26,719 bases of DNA from an uncultured virus (IMG/VR IMGVR_UViG_3300031963_000055) (Duplodnaviria; Heunggongvirae; Uroviricota; Caudoviricetes). Below, piece by piece: positions 9,403 through 21,714 of the stretch. The stretch lies in the IMG/VR virus record IMGVR_UViG_3300031963_000055. One strand, written 5' to 3'. Position 1 is the first letter of the stretch, and every line of letters starts with the position of its first letter. The notes beneath the pieces are model-generated. The model made no database searches and was not told where the DNA came from. It saw only the letters and a program-made list of their open reading frames with translations. The position numbers and the translations under genes are program-made.

Positions 9403-10533
9403 TTAAATTAAGCCATTATTTAATGCTTGGCGGAAAGCACTGAAGTTACTTGAAGATTTTTCTTGACTAAAACTATCTGATTGACCAGTTTTTAATTTAG
9501 ATCTACTATCTCCTTTAAAGTTAGATAACTTACTAGCTAACTCTGAACTTACTTTATTCTTTACTTGTTTTTCTAACTTACTCATATCCCAATCATTCAT
9601 TGCTAAATAAGCATACATAAATTGAGCATTTTCGTTAGTTTCATTATGCTTCTGTAAACCAGTCTTACCTGATTTATCGGGTTTCATAATGAAGTCCCAA
9701 AGATTATCTTTTAATTTGGGAGTTAACTTAAACCCTTGAATTTCATCTTTAGAATATAATTTGTCTTTAAACTCCTCATATTGTTTTTTAGCTAAAGCCT
9801 TTTGTTCAGCATCATATTTCTTTTGAACTTCAACTAACTGTTCTTGATAAGACTTTTCAGCATTTTGTAATTTAGTTAAAGCTGTTTTAGCTTTCTTTTC
9901 CAATATACCAGAAACTTCATATGTATCAAGAGTTTCATTAATTTCTTCTTCATCTTCACCTTGAGCTTTTAAATACTCTTTTAAAACAACTTTTGAATCA
10001 GATTCATCTTCTAATTTAAAGTCTGCCCAAGAACTTTGGTTGTAATAAAGATCCATAAATTGTTTAGGATCTCCACCTGCTTCAACAAATTCTACAAGTT
10101 TGTGTACATCTTCAGGTAAACTTTGTTTATACCTTTCAACTTCTTTCTCAACTGTAGTACTCATTAGTTTTTTTAAACCATCTTCAGAATCTTCAAAAGT
10201 TTCTTCATCATAGTCTACTAAACCTTTATCTCCTAACCAACTTGCAAATACTTTGAGAGAAGAACTCTCTTCAGTAGTTTCTTGTTTAGTCTCAACTTCA
10301 GCAACTTCTTCAGGTGCTTTAGTTTCTTCTTTGGGGATGTCTTTAACAACCTCTTTTGTAACTTCCTTAGTTTCATCAACTGGTGTCACGTCTTCTAGAT
10401 TTTCAAGTAATGGTTGAGCTACTGAATTATTCTCTTTAAAATCTGAAGAATATTCATCATTAAACTGCATTTCCATACCTTCACCAAATGGTGTATCTAG
10501 GATATTAAATTCCTTTTGTTTTTCCTTACTCAT
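9403..10533 (-). CDS. putative capsid scaffolding protein
   Basis: 376 aa, highly acidic and helical, directly upstream of MCP. Confidence 0.6.
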   Translation of the reverse strand: MSKEKQKEFNILDTPFGEGMEMQFNDEYSSDFKENNSVAQPLLENLEDVTPVDETKEVTKEVVKDIPKEETKAPEEVAEVETKQETTEESSSLKVFASWLGDKGLVDYDEETFEDSEDGLKKLMSTTVEKEVERYKQSLPEDVHKLVEFVEAGGDPKQFMDLYYNQSSWADFKLEDESDSKVVLKEYLKAQGEDEEEINETLDTYEVSGILEKKAKTALTKLQNAEKSYQEQLVEVQKKYDAEQKALAKKQYEEFKDKLYSKDEIQGFKLTPKLKDNLWDFIMKPDKSGKTGLQKHNETNENAQFMYAYLAMNDWDMSKLEKQVKNKVSSELASKLSNFKGDSRSKLKTGQSDSFSQEKSSSNFSAFRQALNNGLI

Positions 10534-10629: not shown

Positions 10630-11154
10630 TTATCCTTTTAATTCTGTATCAAATAATCTCATTGCTATCTTATCTTCACCAAAAGCTTCTAATTTATCTA
10701 TATAAGTTTGAACTTTTCCTAGTTCTTCTTGTTGTTCAGTTAAGAATTTCATAGCTAATTGATATAATAAATGATTACCATATTTCATAGCATGTGAAGC
10801 TAATTCATTACATTGTTGAGTAACCATTATTTCATGAGCAAATGATTGTCTAATAATATCAGGTAATCCAGCAAATACTTGAGGAGGTTCTTTTAAAGCC
10901 GGTAACTTTGGAGTTACTCCCATATCTAAAAGAAAATCTTTAGCCCATTGAGCATGTTTCATCTCATCTTCAGAATCCTTTAACCAGGCTGAAGCTGCTC
11001 CAGTATATCCATGATCATTTAACCATAAAGACATTATTTGATATAGCCGACTAGAATATTCTTCTTGCTCAATTCTATAATTTAATATATCAATGCATTC
11101 TTTAGATGCAAAAGGGTTTTTAACCCCACCAAGTTTTACTTTAGGTACTTCCAT
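10630..11154 (-). CDS. ftnA: ferritin (FtnA-like)
   Basis: EEYSSRLYQIMSLW...GAA...EDEMKH...HEIMVT...EQQEE matches the bacterial non-haem ferritin pattern (ELYSS.LY..MS.W, EEM.H, HE..IT, EQ.EE). Confidence 0.85.
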   Translation of the reverse strand: MEVPKVKLGGVKNPFASKECIDILNYRIEQEEYSSRLYQIMSLWLNDHGYTGAASAWLKDSEDEMKHAQWAKDFLLDMGVTPKLPALKEPPQVFAGLPDIIRQSFAHEIMVTQQCNELASHAMKYGNHLLYQLAMKFLTEQQEELGKVQTYIDKLEAFGEDKIAMRLFDTELKG

Positions 11155-13733
11155 TATTTTTTAGGTTTATTAGATTTAGCTTTAGCTGCGGCCAACTTCA
11201 TACGTTCTATCTCCATCTTTTTATTCATCATATCTTTATCTAAAGCAGCTTTCTTATTAGCTAATTCAATTTGATTCTTATTTTGAATTTTAATTTGTTC
11301 AAGTTTCTTATTTTCTAGATCTTGTTTCATTCTAATCTCTTTATCTTTTTGAGCTAACTGAGCATCATGTTTAGATTTATCATGTCCAATCTTAGATTGT
11401 TCTAAGAATGCTTTAGATGATAATTCTTGTTGTTTTAATGCATTAGCCGCAATCTCTGAAGGATCAGGGATACCATTATCATTTTGATCTAAATCTTGTT
11501 GTCTAGCAAATACACCAATCTCAGCAATTTGAATTTTTGTAGAATTATTAGCTTCAGCAATATATCTTTCTTGATCAAGTTTTAAATGATCTAATTCAAC
11601 TTGTTCAGCATGCATTTGTTGTTGAATAGCTTCAACTTTCATTTCATGCTCTTGTTGAGCTTTAGAACTATCAGCTTGACGTTTATAGAACTCCTCTTCT
11701 TTACGTTGTAACAATCTTACAATATCTCTAGGAGAATCATTCATTAATGTTTCAACTATTGAAGATAAATCTATTTTTTCAGACTGTAATGCTACTTGAA
11801 CTAATTGGTCTAACTTAGCTTTTAATTCAAGATCTTTAGTATTGTTAGTTACAAATACATTAAACTCTGAATTCTCAAATTCATTCTCTTCTAGGTTAAG
11901 CATCTCAATACCCATATCATCTAAGACATACTGAGCAACTAATCCTTTCTTATAACATATCTTAGCAACTTCAATCATTGCTGTATAGGCTCTACGTTTA
12001 ACTTCAGCATGAGCTTCGTACAAATATTCAGTAATTAATGATGATTGATTAACAGATCTTTCTACATTACCAACTAGTTCAGAGTTATTAATAGCACCTA
12101 AACGTTGAGGTGTAACACCAGATACAAAGGCTACTTGTTGTTTAATGTAATCCAACATATTGATATATTGTTGAATAGATTGACTAAGACTTAAATCAAT
12201 TGCTTGAAACTGATTAAACTTGTTGGCCAATTGTCCTGTAGCAGCACCTTTCTTACCTTCCTCAAATGAGTTAATGAATGCAATATTCATCTCTTTAAGA
12301 TAGTACATCCACTTATCAATATCGATACCTTGACTTTGAGGTATCTGAGCTAAGTCCATGATGAACTTCTTACCTTGATCTGAAGCAAATGCTATCTCTA
12401 ATCTATAAGATATAATATCATATAAATATTGATAAGGTTTTAATCTGTCAATTAAACTAACTGATTGAGAGTTAGTAGCTTCATATATAAATCCTGTATA
12501 ACCTAATCTGCAGTAGTATGGATTATCCAATCTACGTCTTTGGTTAGGTTTAGGTTTAATGTCTGTAAATATATCTAATCCAATTTTAACACCTTCCCAA
12601 GCTTCATTGATCCAATACCATTCTACTTTAGCATCAGGGAAAGCTTCTTTAAATATTCTAGTATTAAAGAATTCATCTACAATCTCTGTATTAACAGTTC
12701 CTTCTTCATCAGTCCAAGTTAACTCACCAATCTTCTTCATTGATTTCCATTCAACTCTAGTAACTCTAATAGAATAGTTATTACTATTATTTCCATTATA
12801 AGCATTAGTTGGAGTAACTCCTGCAAAAGCATTTTGTCCATTAACTACATCAAACTGAGGTTCAAATCCACCTGCTGTATTAAAAGAACCAAAGGTCCCT
12901 CTAGTATAATTTTCTAATTTCTCTATATCTGCTTTAGATAGAATATCACCATATTCATCTAAAATAGTATTGATGGCCAACATACGTTCTTCAACTACTG
13001 CTATAGCATCATCAATAAAAGTAGTATCTCCATCTAGTATCACAGTTAAGTTAACTGGATTAACTCTACGCATAGCTACTTCATCATTCTCAATACCTAC
13101 CCAATAAATCTCTTCTCCAGCAATTAAAGCATCTTTCCATCCTTGAGAAAATAATAATCTAGTATTACATTTCTTCTTTAAAGACTTAAGAATCTTGTTA
13201 GCTTTAGATTCAATTATATCCGACGGTGTATATTTTTCATGCTTGATAATTTCTTCCGGTGGAGGTGGTGGATTATTAGGATCTGCATTAGGATCAATTT
13301 GATAAGCCAAACCTTGTTGTAAAGCCTGGAAAATCTTTTCCTTAATTGCTGAAGTCTTTCTGTTAATATCATCTGGAGATTCAGATACCACAATATGATT
13401 ATCTGGACGTTTAGTTTCCTCACCAATAAGTAACTTAATTGGTTCAGAGATGATGTCATAATGTTGAAATCTAGCGGGAAATGTATTTGAAGTATTGATA
13501 CCCAATGGATCACATATAGTTTCAATATCCTTATGGTTGACTTTACCATTATATAAATCGTAGTTAATTAACTTTCTAAGTCTATCAGAACGCAGATTAC
13601 TACCATTAGTATATCTGTAATTTGAATAATAATTAATGCAAGACTTACCCCACTCTTTGTCTTTGCTAGACATAGGTAACTTTTGTTGTGGTAAATTCTG
13701 ACCACCTAAATTGGCGTATATATCTTGACTCAT
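11154..13733 (-). CDS. portal protein
   Basis: 859 aa directly after the terminase; crAss-type motifs NYDLYNG, LLIGEE, WINEAWEG, LKPYQYLY, SGVTPQRLG; long C-terminal coiled coil with DQNDNGIPD. Confidence 0.9.
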   Translation of the reverse strand: MSQDIYANLGGQNLPQQKLPMSSKDKEWGKSCINYYSNYRYTNGSNLRSDRLRKLINYDLYNGKVNHKDIETICDPLGINTSNTFPARFQHYDIISEPIKLLIGEETKRPDNHIVVSESPDDINRKTSAIKEKIFQALQQGLAYQIDPNADPNNPPPPPEEIIKHEKYTPSDIIESKANKILKSLKKKCNTRLLFSQGWKDALIAGEEIYWVGIENDEVAMRRVNPVNLTVILDGDTTFIDDAIAVVEERMLAINTILDEYGDILSKADIEKLENYTRGTFGSFNTAGGFEPQFDVVNGQNAFAGVTPTNAYNGNNSNNYSIRVTRVEWKSMKKIGELTWTDEEGTVNTEIVDEFFNTRIFKEAFPDAKVEWYWINEAWEGVKIGLDIFTDIKPKPNQRRRLDNPYYCRLGYTGFIYEATNSQSVSLIDRLKPYQYLYDIISYRLEIAFASDQGKKFIMDLAQIPQSQGIDIDKWMYYLKEMNIAFINSFEEGKKGAATGQLANKFNQFQAIDLSLSQSIQQYINMLDYIKQQVAFVSGVTPQRLGAINNSELVGNVERSVNQSSLITEYLYEAHAEVKRRAYTAMIEVAKICYKKGLVAQYVLDDMGIEMLNLEENEFENSEFNVFVTNNTKDLELKAKLDQLVQVALQSEKIDLSSIVETLMNDSPRDIVRLLQRKEEEFYKRQADSSKAQQEHEMKVEAIQQQMHAEQVELDHLKLDQERYIAEANNSTKIQIAEIGVFARQQDLDQNDNGIPDPSEIAANALKQQELSSKAFLEQSKIGHDKSKHDAQLAQKDKEIRMKQDLENKKLEQIKIQNKNQIELANKKAALDKDMMNKKMEIERMKLAAAKAKSNKPKK

Positions 13734-15823
13734 TGGTTTGTACTTGTGTTAAATTGGGAATTCTTCCTATTAAATATAAGGCCTTTTTTATAAATTCTTT
13801 CTAAGTAATTACTAATAGGGTTAGCATCATTTGATAGCTCTTCTACATGTATTCTATGTAATTCATAGGTTTGTAAAATACATAGCATTAACGCAATAAC
13901 TCTATCTGTATTTATTTCTCTATCATAAGCTATTAACTCTTTTAGCAATGGTATAGATTTAATAGTCTGAAATCTAAGTTGTTTAGTTCCTTCTACCTCA
14001 CCATTAATTTCCTCATATAACCATTTCTTAAGATATAACTCACACTGATCTTTAATACCCGCCGCACCTCCAGATCCTCTATTCATATGGATACCATATC
14101 CACGTTGAACTCTAGAATCCTTAATCATATCCTTAATAATACCAGGTTGTTCACACATATATTGTAGAGAGTTCTTTTGTTCAAAGTATACCTTTAAACC
14201 TTTTAACTGGTTCTCATACAATACTTTAGAGTTATAATACATACATAGTTTTCTACATACTTCATAAAACTCTTCTGCAGTATCTGGTCTAGATGTGTAT
14301 TCAGCAACTATAATATCATGAGTTCTATCCGCTCTATAAAATCTCTTATAGACAAAGAATGAGCCTAGAGATCCAGATTCTGATTTATCTTGATCATAAG
14401 GGTCACATCCTGCAATATATAAGTAATTAGGTATCTCACCATTCTCATGTTTCTCAGGGTGTTCCCAAATCACTGCACAGCCATTTGTAGAGAATGATTC
14501 TCCTGACTTAGGATCTTTTCTTAAAGGGAAGTCTGTAATATGAACTAAGTCATCATTAGGTCTCCATTTAACATATCCATCATCAAAGAATAGTTCACCT
14601 TTCTGAGCTTGACCTCTAAGACTAGGAGTATTCTCTAAATGACCTAACCATTCTAACATCTCTGGAGAACCAAAGACATTACCTTTATTTCTTAAAAAAG
14701 CTTCTTTCCAAGTACAAGGGAATTGAGTAGTAATATTATGAATTGCTTTAGGATCTAAACCATGTTTAGCCTTAGCTCTTAAAAAGTCAATATCATCTTG
14801 AGCTGCTTCATAGTTAGAGTTACCATCTTCATCAACCATAGGTTTTTTATACCATTTAGATTCTGGATTAAGACATAAGCCTAATCTGCCTTTTGTAGCT
14901 GAACTAAAGAACCCTATCCTGCCATTAGGATTAAATGGATCCTCAAAATCTAACATGTTGTATTTTTCAGGATTAGTAAACATCTCATAGAAATACTTAC
15001 TCCCTGAATCCATGTCTCCAGAAGATCCAAATAACAGAGCTACACCTGTGTATGTACTACCGTCTTTTATAAGGGGTTCAGAGTAACCATATGCATCTAC
15101 AATGTTTCCAAAAACACCGCATTCGTCGAGGATTAACCAGTTAGCACTAAGCCCAACACCACTAGTAGGATTATCTTTGTAGCTAATGGCACGCACTTCG
15201 GAATTAAACCCCTTCCACACCTTAACCCCGCTAACAGTTGCCTGATACCTTGCCTTAATAAAGTCTTTAAGGTCAGGATTTCTTTGCTTTCTGAATTCAG
15301 TATTCATATTGATAAAATTTGAATTATCAATAACCATATTCATAGTGTTTTGACTAAAGGTGCTGTAAAAAGCACCTATAATTGCTTTACTATCTGGATA
15401 GAAATAGAATTCATGTGTACATATTGCTGCAGCTTTGTAAGACCAACCTTGACGACGACCTTTTACAGCAACTAGTGATTTTTGATTTAGTCTACAATAT
15501 TCTACCATGTGGAAGAATTCATAATCTAAATCTATAAATCTAGGAAAGATTTTAGATTTCTTTCCAGTCTTTTCATTAAGACCTAATATTGGACAGAAGT
15601 TTAAATAGAAAAAATGTTGACCAGTAATATGTTGCCCACAAGAGTTAGTAAATCCATTTAAACATTTATCTCTAACATCTTGCCAGAACTCTACATATTC
15701 TATAGTTCCTGGAATAGAGTTAGTATATAATCCTGTTCTATTATATTGTTCAGCAAGATATGAAAACTCTTTAGTATTCTTAAAGTAGTCTACACATATT
15801 ACGTATTTATTGTCATTCAGCAT
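13730..15823 (-). CDS. terL: terminase large subunit
   Basis: Walker A-like KGRRQGWS, Walker B LILDE, nuclease motifs IAGCDPY, LYEN, TDRV; ATGA overlap with the portal gene. Confidence 0.93.
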   Translation of the reverse strand: MLNDNKYVICVDYFKNTKEFSYLAEQYNRTGLYTNSIPGTIEYVEFWQDVRDKCLNGFTNSCGQHITGQHFFYLNFCPILGLNEKTGKKSKIFPRFIDLDYEFFHMVEYCRLNQKSLVAVKGRRQGWSYKAAAICTHEFYFYPDSKAIIGAFYSTFSQNTMNMVIDNSNFINMNTEFRKQRNPDLKDFIKARYQATVSGVKVWKGFNSEVRAISYKDNPTSGVGLSANWLILDECGVFGNIVDAYGYSEPLIKDGSTYTGVALLFGSSGDMDSGSKYFYEMFTNPEKYNMLDFEDPFNPNGRIGFFSSATKGRLGLCLNPESKWYKKPMVDEDGNSNYEAAQDDIDFLRAKAKHGLDPKAIHNITTQFPCTWKEAFLRNKGNVFGSPEMLEWLGHLENTPSLRGQAQKGELFFDDGYVKWRPNDDLVHITDFPLRKDPKSGESFSTNGCAVIWEHPEKHENGEIPNYLYIAGCDPYDQDKSESGSLGSFFVYKRFYRADRTHDIIVAEYTSRPDTAEEFYEVCRKLCMYYNSKVLYENQLKGLKVYFEQKNSLQYMCEQPGIIKDMIKDSRVQRGYGIHMNRGSGGAAGIKDQCELYLKKWLYEEINGEVEGTKQLRFQTIKSIPLLKELIAYDREINTDRVIALMLCILQTYELHRIHVEELSNDANPISNYLERIYKKGLIFNRKNSQFNTSTNQ

Positions 15824-19192: not shown

Positions 19193-19516
19193 AATTTTTA
19201 TTTTGAATTGAACACAATATTCCCCTTCCAGTTTGTACACCAGATGTTAGGATTAATTATAAACTTATATCTATCTGTCTTTAACCGTTCCAGTTACCTG
19301 GCCACTGCTTACTTTAACCCTGTTAATTCAGGAGGATACTTCATACCTCTTGTAGCAGTTATAGAATTTCATTTATAACCTTTTTTTGTACCTATCGGAG
19401 AAACCTCAACCCTTATGTTTAGATGTTATTTCAATCTCAGAGTTTACTATCCAACTTCTAAGCAAGTGTTAACTTTTTGGGTATTCCTTGCTGAATTACT
19501 TCTTCAGTAATAGTAC
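19193..19516 (-). ncRNA. candidate structured ncRNA or long structured 5' leader
   Basis: About 320 nt with no convincing ORF, starting at a predicted promoter; several stems and a GTAA-tetraloop hairpin; family not recognised. Confidence 0.5.
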
Positions 19517-19520
19517 AGTA

Positions 19521-19552
19521 TAAATATAAGCTTTTTCTAGGACACTATCAAA
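19521..19552 (-). promoter_or_regulatory. Bacteroidota-type promoter
   Basis: TTTG(19552-19549)-N20-TATATTTA(19528-19521). Confidence 0.65.
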
Positions 19553-19733
19553 TTTCAGGTGTTAAATCTTTAGAAATATCTTTAATTTCTAAATCGGATT
19601 CTGGAGTAATTATGGGTGCTTGCCCTTCTAATGAAGAATCCCACCAAACTATCCCTTTTTCTTTTACCCAATATAGAAATTCTGTAATTTCCATTTGATT
19701 AGGTTTTGATTTTAAATCATATACTAGTTTCAT
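19548..19733 (-). CDS. small protein resembling portal 456-493
   Basis: KLVYDLKSKP...EITEFLYWVKEKGIVWWDSSLEG vs portal KFIMDLAQIP...DIDKWMYYLKEMNIAFINSFEEG. Confidence 0.7.
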   Translation of the reverse strand: MKLVYDLKSKPNQMEITEFLYWVKEKGIVWWDSSLEGQAPIITPESDLEIKDISKDLTPEI

Positions 19734-19734
19734 A

Positions 19735-19947
19735 TTATTCTTCAGTTATAGGACTAGTCCCAGTTAATAAATAAAACTTATTGATTTTCTCAGCCATGAT
19801 TAACTTCTCATTGATATGATCCATATCCTCATAATCTAGTTTATCGTTATAGTGTTTCTTAGTTACACCCATTTTAAGGTAAATTGATCCATCAGGTAAT
19901 ATACCTATGATTTGATGATCGTTGAAATTTTTAGATTTTGTTCTCAT
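19735..19947 (-). CDS. small protein with a segment resembling portal 61-77
   Basis: YNDKLDYEDMDHINEKL vs portal YNGKVNHKDIETICDPL. Confidence 0.55.
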   Translation of the reverse strand: MRTKSKNFNDHQIIGILPDGSIYLKMGVTKKHYNDKLDYEDMDHINEKLIMAEKINKFYLLTGTSPITEE

Positions 19948-20417
19948 TATTTAATATTTAATTGTTGCATTAGTTTAATTAATTCTGATTTGTTTTTAAT
20001 TTTAAATCTCATAACCCATTCTCCAGGTACATAAGATGAATATGCTTGTATTTTAATAACCCAATTATCATCTTGTTGAATTAACCAATAATGAATACCA
20101 TTGTTAAATCCAAACTCTTCTGTTTTTTGAAAAGTCATTAATTGTCTTCCTGTAAATGGTGATTTTTTAGAATCTCTTAATTCCCAACCTAAACTTTCTA
20201 TATCAGATTGGTCTAGGTATTTAACTCTAACTGTTCTAATTCCTCCTAATAATTCTTCTTCAAACCAACTATCTGATCTTTCATAATCTGGTCCATCAGA
20301 TTTATAATCTTGTATTCTCATTTTAGATTCTTCCCACCTATCTCCATTCATATATTCATATCCAAATCCTACATGAAACTCTTCTATTGTAGGTGTATAG
20401 TATAAGTTATTTTCCAT
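19947..20417 (-). CDS. hypothetical phage protein
   Basis: 156 aa; YYTPTIEEFHVGF.YE and RVKYLD..DIESLG motifs; function unknown. Confidence 0.65.
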   Translation of the reverse strand: MENNLYYTPTIEEFHVGFGYEYMNGDRWEESKMRIQDYKSDGPDYERSDSWFEEELLGGIRTVRVKYLDQSDIESLGWELRDSKKSPFTGRQLMTFQKTEEFGFNNGIHYWLIQQDDNWVIKIQAYSSYVPGEWVMRFKIKNKSELIKLMQQLNIK

Positions 20418-20586
20418 TTGTATAATCTTTAGGTAATGTTGATTTATTAGATTGTTTAATTATTGTTTGGTGTAAAGCTTCTTCTAGTCTATAGGTTATA
20501 ATATCATACAGATGTTTATGTTTAATCCTAATATCTACAGGTTCATCTACCCAAAACTGTTGTTGTTTATATTCATTGTTACTCAT
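20407..20586 (-). CDS. 59-aa ORF not in the supplied track, containing a portal-like peptide
   Basis: MSNNEYKQQQFWVDEPVDIRIKHKHLYDIITYRLEEALHQTIIKQSNKSTLPKDYTNGK; ATGA overlap with the upstream ORF. Confidence 0.75.
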   Translation of the reverse strand: MSNNEYKQQQFWVDEPVDIRIKHKHLYDIITYRLEEALHQTIIKQSNKSTLPKDYTNGK

Positions 20587-21159: not shown

Positions 21160-21714
21160 TTAAGATTTATCAGTGTTAGATAGTTTAAGGTATTCTACGG
21201 CTTTTAATAATAAAATTGAATTATCCTTAAACATACCCAATCCTGAATTACAATTAGAGCATAATAAACCCCTTACTAATCCTGTATCATGACAGTGATC
21301 TATTGATAATTTTCTATGGTAAGTATTACAAATCAAGCAGTTACCTTGTTGAGTACTATACAATTTATCATAATCTTCTATCGTCATATCATAGTTAGAT
21401 TTTAATTTTTGTTTTCTCTTTCTTAGAGACTCTTTAATAGGGTTAGCTTTTCTTTTTATTGCTTTGTATTTATTTCTGCATACTTTACAACTAGATTGAG
21501 TACTTCCTGTATTTTTATTGATAATTGAAAAACAAGATATATCTTTAGATTCTGTACATGTGGTGCATATTTTTAAACCCTCTACAATAGGTTTATGTGG
21601 TTTATGACCATATCTACATTCTTTACAAAACCCTAAATACCCGTCTTTGTTTACTGAACACTGATTAAAATCAGTAAGTTCTTTTTCTACTTTACATTTT
21701 TTACATATTTTCAT
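21160..21714 (-). CDS. endonuclease VII-family (His-Me finger) endonuclease, probably a free-standing homing endonuclease
   Basis: CLIC...IDHCHDTGLVRGLLCSNCNSGLGMFKD, preceded by two CxxC...CxxC repeats. Confidence 0.85.
   Translation of the reverse strand: MKICKKCKVEKELTDFNQCSVNKDGYLGFCKECRYGHKPHKPIVEGLKICTTCTESKDISCFSIINKNTGSTQSSCKVCRNKYKAIKRKANPIKESLRKRKQKLKSNYDMTIEDYDKLYSTQQGNCLICNTYHRKLSIDHCHDTGLVRGLLCSNCNSGLGMFKDNSILLLKAVEYLKLSNTDKS

Follow-up and report, generated by a model that had tools for sequence, protein, structure and literature searches.

Few phage proteins are as well conserved as the portal, and it is sensed by several bacterial immune systems, some of which bind its clip (PMC12847820). 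In the canonical portal fold, as outlined in the same paper, the clip links the two stem helices and is built of three strands and one helix, and the relevant parts of this work and of a second one describe it as the docking site of the terminase and then of the tail (PMC12847820, PMC10172136). Among the sensors, SpbK's N-terminal domain binds the clip in SPbeta (YonE), and the TPR domain of Avs4 (EcAvs4, PhiV-1 gp8) binds the clip along with the stem and a portion of the wing, as summarized in the sensor passages of PMC12847820. A phage can hardly mutate its clip, the exposed tip of the portal, as packaging motor and tail attach there. A soluble clip look-alike could compete for any of the partners terminase, tail, SpbK and Avs4. 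Here we describe a 61-aa open reading frame (ORF), named ORF61, from an uncultured virus of the Caudoviricetes (IMG/VR record IMGVR_UViG_3300031963_000055), the whole stretch of DNA analyzed, 26,719 nt in length, being referred to hereafter as the window. The first part of the protein resembles a segment of the phage's own portal, and the family to which ORF61 belongs is probably truly related to the portal clip, whether through shared ancestry or through structural mimicry.

The window comes from the genome of an uncultured crAss-like phage, with the parent record being a 30-kb fragment estimated as 34% complete. Its portal protein matches gp20 of crAss001 (PDB 7QOG) over residues 13-809 with an E-value of 6.2e-122, and the closest portals of GenBank phages are less than 35% identical to it. 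The features compared are the following:

11154-13733, minus strand: portal protein gene of the crAss type, 859 aa (phrog_6547, E 1.1e-147, and PDB 7QOG)
12252-12368, minus strand: portal residues 456-494, first strand-helix-strand of the clip domain (BLASTP, gp20 alignment, published descriptions)
19548-19733, minus strand: ORF61, 61 aa, ATG start (ORF list, homologues, slot in locus L028)
19620-19730, minus strand: putative clip-like segment, ORF61 residues 2-38 (BLASTP, hhalign, AlphaFold2 (AF2) and Foldseek, via alignment to gp20 459-516)
19548-19619, minus strand: C-terminal part of ORF61, residues 39-61 (family alignment, AF2 model)
20407-20586, minus strand: sister ORF, 59 aa, residues 23-38 of which resemble portal 434-449

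The ORF61 gene and its resemblance to the portal clip

ORF61 is a genuine gene of a small-protein family. A 61-aa ORF at 19548-19733 had been claimed in a sequence-only reading of the window, and it is indeed present on the minus strand, its ATG lying 1 nt past the stop codon of the upstream gene 19735-19947. A search of 5.8 billion proteins returned four near relatives with identities of 83-100%, and an exhaustive search of 1.84 billion representatives matched 11 proteins at E ≤ 0.001, seven of which are small (60-83 aa, 36-67% identity). The remaining four matches are long LRR, Cna_B and other repeat proteins (P0007-P0010), which were considered summed-repeat artefacts and excluded from the family. 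In the resulting alignment of 10 sequences, designated A1, residues D6, D32, S33 and P40 are invariant, and the motif D-[IV]-S-K-D-L is conserved in the C-terminal part. ORF61 carries all the family hallmarks, namely a length within 59-83 aa, the M-K-L-x-Y-D-[LIV] start, D6, the D32-S33 pair, P40 and the C-terminal motif, with the last two located in its C-terminal part along with a predicted beta-hairpin (residues 41-42 and 49-52).

Among the related loci, the hidden Markov model (HMM) of the family matches L001, L002, L004 and L028. No family was matched by ORF61 in Pfam (E ≤ 1) or in PHROGs (E ≤ 0.01), no match to GenBank phages was obtained with tblastn at E ≤ 1, and the ESM Atlas gave no usable match. 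Searches of viral contigs with the family members P0005 and P0011 as queries, and of metagenome contigs with P0004, yielded no relatives; P0003 led to two loci of the window's own type, and the GC-rich contig L091, matched by the same query, was dropped as spurious.

The alignment between ORF61 and the portal that the sequence-only reading had put forward was reproduced. BLASTP aligned ORF61 residues 2-45 with portal residues 456-501 (13/46 identical and 25/46 positive positions, two gap positions, a score of 23.1 bits) with an E-value of 0.001, which holds for a single pairwise comparison, and the Smith-Waterman alignment paired residues 2-38 with portal 456-494 (12 identities in 39 columns, one 2-residue gap), its score being matched or exceeded by 8 out of 2000 shuffles of ORF61. 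Conserved positions of the ORF61 family and the portal are paired in this register, namely D6/D460, P11/P465, D32/N488 and S33/S489. A recent copy of the portal gene was considered as the source of the likeness and rejected, as the nucleotide identity is 56/132 and identical codons are found at 5 of the 13 identical residues.

Assignment of the portal segment to the clip, also made in the earlier reading, is supported because gp20 459-516, to which the segment maps, directly precedes the inner stem helix and the canonical clip joins the stem helices. Portal residue 456 aligns with gp20 residue 459, and the gp20 equivalent of portal 456-494 is 459-497. In the portal passages of the crAss001 structure paper, the inner stem helix spans residues 519-541 and the tunnel loops 550-563, and the clip touches the tail barrel (PMC10172136).

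The sister ORF was correctly said to match the portal segment just before that of ORF61: its residues 23-38 share 10 of 16 positions with portal 434-449, which is the end of the outer stem helix preceding the clip, with an E-value of 1e-4 and a score that 1 out of 2000 shuffles matched or exceeded. When an HMM built from 117 portals was run against approximately 272 six-frame ORFs of the window, the sister ORF was ranked first (E 0.014) and ORF61 second (E 0.31), the latter scoring only 2.7-2.9 bits.

Profile and structure comparisons

Comparison of A1 with an alignment of 24 portals using hhalign gave a single match, located at portal 456-496, with a probability of 6.9% and an E-value of 0.0052. 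Against a more diverse portal alignment assembled from the loci, the score was 27.2 (probability 9.8%, P 0.0033), which none of the 300 column shuffles of A1 reached (mean 14.4, sd 2.6, maximum 25.2), and against the stem-plus-clip segment alone the probability was 35%. The hhalign alignment extends with low confidence from the C-terminal part of ORF61 onto portal residues ~505-520.

A second small ORF was found with a clip HMM covering portal residues 425-545, built from 43 distinct sequences and searched against 8242 non-portal six-frame ORFs from 82 loci. Its top eight rows were P0136 (E 0.0018), three instances of the sister ORF (E 0.13), three of ORF61 (E 0.7) and the homologue of ORF61 in L028 (E 0.81).

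Locus L053, 538-726, minus strand: P0136, 62-aa ORF of a related uncultured phage (clip HMM, hhalign)

P0136 belongs to a series of closely spaced small genes within the divergent block of L053 and is a singleton in the search of 5.8 billion proteins. With hhalign, its residues 9-46 are aligned with portal 450-489 (probability 57%, E 1e-4) and its residues 17-42 with residues 4-29 of the ORF61 family (probability 80%, E 1.4e-5), the two registers being in exact agreement; among the 8242 ORFs, P0136 is also the best match outside the family for the ORF61 HMM (E 0.074). Addition of P0136 to A1, giving the alignment A3, raised the hhalign probability against portals up to 44%, and in a six-frame search A3 found the portal frame in two of five whole phage records, with E-values of 1e-4 and 9e-4, one of the two being a complete 94-kb genome where the portal was the sole match. 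Judging by these alignments, P0136 is a putative link between the ORF61 family and the portal clip: each test of relatedness is weak and the registers agree.

Three ORFs on the minus strand of L053, at 538-726, 967-1113 and 1097-1252, begin with a common basic leader, M-[NT]-I-[SK]-N-K-R-K, and may be paralogues. The 51-aa one among them is also matched by the latter half of the profile of the ORF61 family, with an E-value of 0.028 among the 8242 ORFs.

The structure of ORF61 was predicted with AF2 on A1 in the template-free mode, and the strands and the helix of a clip-like fold are present in the best model, which has a predicted local distance difference test score (pLDDT) of 84, with the other four models having scores of 53-68. 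The strands comprise residues 3-4, 28-31, 41-42 and 49-52, and the helix comprises residues 16-26. The model has a single helix and some four short strands, lacks stem helices and does not show the full architecture of a 12-mer portal. ORF61 was likewise rejected as a portal protein (PHROG 6547, Pfam PF16510), as it matches neither family and has no wing, stem helices or crown.

Foldseek, run against 350,542 PDB chains at E ≤ 10, returned 10 rows for the ORF61 model, seven of which are crAss001 vertex portal chains. Comparison with crAss portal structures had been suggested beforehand as a check, and its outcome is divided: a crAss001 vertex portal chain is indeed the top match (34 columns, rmsd (root-mean-square deviation) 2.0, 26% identity), while the E-value is 2.8 and the scores are low; the gp20 residues aligned, 459-516, are the ones that kinship with the clip would lead one to expect. 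The match is not a trivial echo of the sequence, because sequence HMMs miss gp20 in the PDB. For the P0136 model, the top nine Foldseek rows are crAss001 portal chains as well (E 2.3-5.4, 27 columns, rmsd 1.1). A structure search of BFVD gave 16 rows, none of them significant, with an 808-aa protein in first place and a 106-aa 'portal protein' in third.

Several results weigh against the relationship between ORF61 and the clip. The values of ORF61 itself are conventionally significant in none of the tests, its E-values at the scale of the window or the database being 0.3-0.8, and the match was chosen post hoc among many possible pairs of ORFs and proteins. When the window was searched by tblastn with the portal as a query and the portal gene masked, a lysine/glutamate-rich tail match came first, the sister ORF second (E 0.22) and ORF61 third (E 0.50), tied with another row. 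The signal fades with distance: of the 10 family members, only five are placed in register by the portal HMM, and the distant P0011-P0015 are not among them. The hhalign probability against whole portals is just 7-10%, and A1 retrieved no portal from five whole phage records (six-frame, E ≤ 10) and nothing from the PDB sequences at E ≤ 10. A3 matched three unrelated chains among the PDB sequences (E 0.23-0.24) and not gp20, and the gain from adding P0136 is partly circular because P0136 itself was found with the clip HMM. On the structural side, all the AF2 models of ORF61 but the best one have the lower pLDDT scores given above, the single-sequence model of P0136 is weak (pLDDT 70), and a purely structural search with the latter yielded seven unrelated chains and no portal.

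The sister ORF also appears to be weaker support than it might seem at first sight. Its relatives in L009, L011, L013, L019, L021, L034 and L035 share with it the N-terminal ~28 residues only, which contain the pattern M-S-x-x-E-Y-x-Q-Q-Q-F-W and no portal-like helix, and for this reason the portal-like piece is lineage-specific.

Taken as a whole, the idea of a stand-alone copy of the clip segment, with which the sequence-only reading had begun, holds for the gene, for the clip assignment and for the in-register resemblance; retrieval of portals by the family profile alone failed, and a recent copying event does not fit the nucleotide data.

Distribution, possible role and alternative explanations

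ORF61 was found in 4 of the 25 related loci, where the count takes in loci that extend 8.5 kb or more upstream of the portal gene. Three of the four are essentially identical to the window, and the fourth, L028, carries a 59%-identical homologue in the identical slot, directly after a homologue of the gene 19735-19947. ORF61 is accordingly an accessory gene that is sporadically kept. Comparison with the L028 homologue over 59 codons gave a dN of 0.33 and a dS of 0.52, and the resulting dN/dS of ~0.6, noisy as it is, indicates that ORF61 may be evolving fast; the clip segment of the portal is nearly invariant among the relatives.

The reading we tentatively prefer is that ORF61 is a fast-evolving accessory gene whose first ~40 residues constitute a diverged free-standing relative of the clip acting as a decoy. 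The protein would be a small alpha/beta one, consisting of a strand, a helix, a strand, a beta-hairpin and a conserved acidic tail, and its first ~40 residues would represent a very diverged, free-standing relative, presumably sharing common descent, of the first strand-helix-strand of the clip. Being a soluble clip mimic, ORF61 could bind and occupy a partner of the clip. A host factor that senses portals seems to be a better candidate for such a partner than the phage's own terminase or tail ring, because ORF61 is dispensable, patchy in distribution and fast-changing, while the clip and TerL are nearly invariant. Against this, the identity of ~28% to a near-invariant clip argues against a conserved specific binding surface.

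The alternative to any relationship is a chance resemblance, in which ORF61 would be a small alpha/beta phage protein, unrelated to the clip, that happens to have a widespread strand-helix-strand arrangement and some turn residues in common with it. The modest E-values and the post hoc choice of the pair are what such a coincidence would look like; the shuffling results and the shared register of P0136, the portal and the ORF61 family point the other way, and we regard chance as rather unlikely, though it is the most serious of the alternatives. If the relationship to the clip is real, the protein might instead act on the phage's own assembly: bound to TerL, to the first tail-ring protein or to portal subunits not yet assembled, it would time packaging or head-tail joining, modulate one of these steps, or act as a block to a competing phage. 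Such a role is in keeping with the clip being the docking site of terminase and tail in the passages cited above (PMC12847820, PMC10172136). ORF61 is also encoded on the same strand as TerL and the portal, 3.7 kb upstream of them. A peptide from the clip of T4 gp20 is reported, by Lin, Rao and Black in 1999, to interfere with packaging. On the other hand, 21 of the 25 related loci lack ORF61 and keep a clip and a TerL that are nearly identical, the residues at the surface of ORF61 are not those of the invariant clip, and dN/dS is ~0.6, all of which makes an assembly role, in any of the forms mentioned, decidedly improbable.

ORF61 and the sister ORF could, finally, be functionless debris of a partial duplication of the portal gene, given that they match adjacent portal segments, are collinear and lie on the same strand ~750 bp apart. 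This explanation is largely refuted and we give it hardly any credence: ORF61 is intact, the family is kept down to 36-37% identity with its invariant residues, the conserved C-terminal motif is not expected of a simple copy, and its nucleotide sequence shows no similarity to that of the portal gene (56/132). In addition, the relatives of the sister ORF lack the portal-like motif, and outside the near-identical genomes the two ORFs never occur together among the 25 loci examined, with L028 having one of them and L034 the other.

Returning to the decoy reading, a broader version of it would place ORF61 and P0136 in a widespread undescribed class of free-standing clips serving as monomeric decoys of SpbK- or Avs4-like sensors, which, by analogy with these systems, strikes us as an unlikely though not far-fetched extension. 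Monomeric decoys of this kind would have neither the ring nor the full portal surface needed for activation of the sensor, and the conserved portal would be shielded from recognition. If the relationship is true, a cheap, soluble and separately evolving clip look-alike would be a new escape from the constraint on the clip, and ORF61 would represent a novel class of small proteins for anti-defence or for the control of packaging; should the resemblance be due to chance, ORF61 adds one to the orphan small genes of phages.

Surroundings of ORF61 and comparison with known systems

ORF61 closes a run of six tightly packed small genes extending from 20974 to 19548, downstream of an endonuclease VII gene, and a candidate structured RNA and a promoter-like site are located at its end:

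21160-21714, minus strand: endonuclease VII gene (PF02945, E 3e-23), heading the small-gene cluster
19241-19547, minus strand: structured RNA candidate, 307 nt, directly downstream of ORF61 (15-sequence alignment)
19551-19523, minus strand: promoter-like site, TTGATA-17 nt-TATATT, 10 of 12, overlapping the ORF61 stop codon and the 5' edge of the RNA
13730-15823, minus strand: TerL (phrog_6681, E 9e-116), directly upstream of the portal gene

The N-terminus of the endonuclease VII gene product is cysteine-rich, like Lar-type restriction-alleviation proteins (phrog_5558, E 2e-11), and an 80-nt stretch of the gene shows 79% identity with its counterparts in Pseudomonas phages. The tail match that led the window tblastn mentioned above links portal residues 676-855 with 9445-9963 on the minus strand, within the gene 9403-10533 (E 0.005); this likeness is probably of a compositional or coiled-coil nature, the region concerned being the K/E/Q-rich C-terminal barrel region.

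The element downstream of ORF61 is a candidate covarying structured RNA. It is more conserved than the surrounding proteins, is present with or without ORF61, and at least part of the stretch was found by blastn in 26 of the 83 loci, including phages with portals 55-69% identical. The consensus derived from the 15-sequence alignment (A5) comprises 46 pairs in eight helices, with 97% of the alignment cells paired against 32-42% when the partners are slid and 27 pairs with compensatory changes against 3-17, and none of 500 shuffles reached any of these measures. No match to the element was found in Rfam at E ≤ 1, and the single-sequence fold was uninformative (z 0.92). In L009, L013 and L021 one hairpin of the RNA contains an insertion of ~45 nt. 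At the promoter-like site, the TTTG ... TATATTTG spacing is conserved among the relatives and resembles the Bacteroidota promoter consensus.

Among the systems described so far, the closest to ORF61 is the clip of crAss portals themselves (gp20, PDB 7QOG/7QOI; PHROG 6547). The two are in register, and the D, P and [DN]-S positions coincide. Unlike the portal, ORF61 is a 61-aa stand-alone protein without stem helices, wing or crown, with ~28% identity over the aligned residues, and it has a C-terminal hairpin and a D-[IV]-S-K-D-L tail of its own. P0136 is similar to ORF61 in size, in its location among packed small genes of a crAss-like phage and in a C-terminal I-T-x-E-x-x-L-x-I-[KR]-[DE] stretch, and its resemblance to the clip is stronger than that of ORF61; it differs in having a basic N-terminal leader, in the absence of the W-D-S-S-L-G-G stretch in the MAFFT alignment, and in being encoded on the opposite strand in a divergent gene block.

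A phage-encoded stand-alone clip or clip decoy was not found in literature searches aimed at the topic, judging by the titles and abstracts of the papers listed. The immune sensors that bind the clip are the other systems with which ORF61 can be compared. Judged by the SpbK/YonE and EcAvs4/gp8 pairs, a free clip look-alike such as ORF61 would be the kind of molecule able to compete with the portal for sensors of this type.
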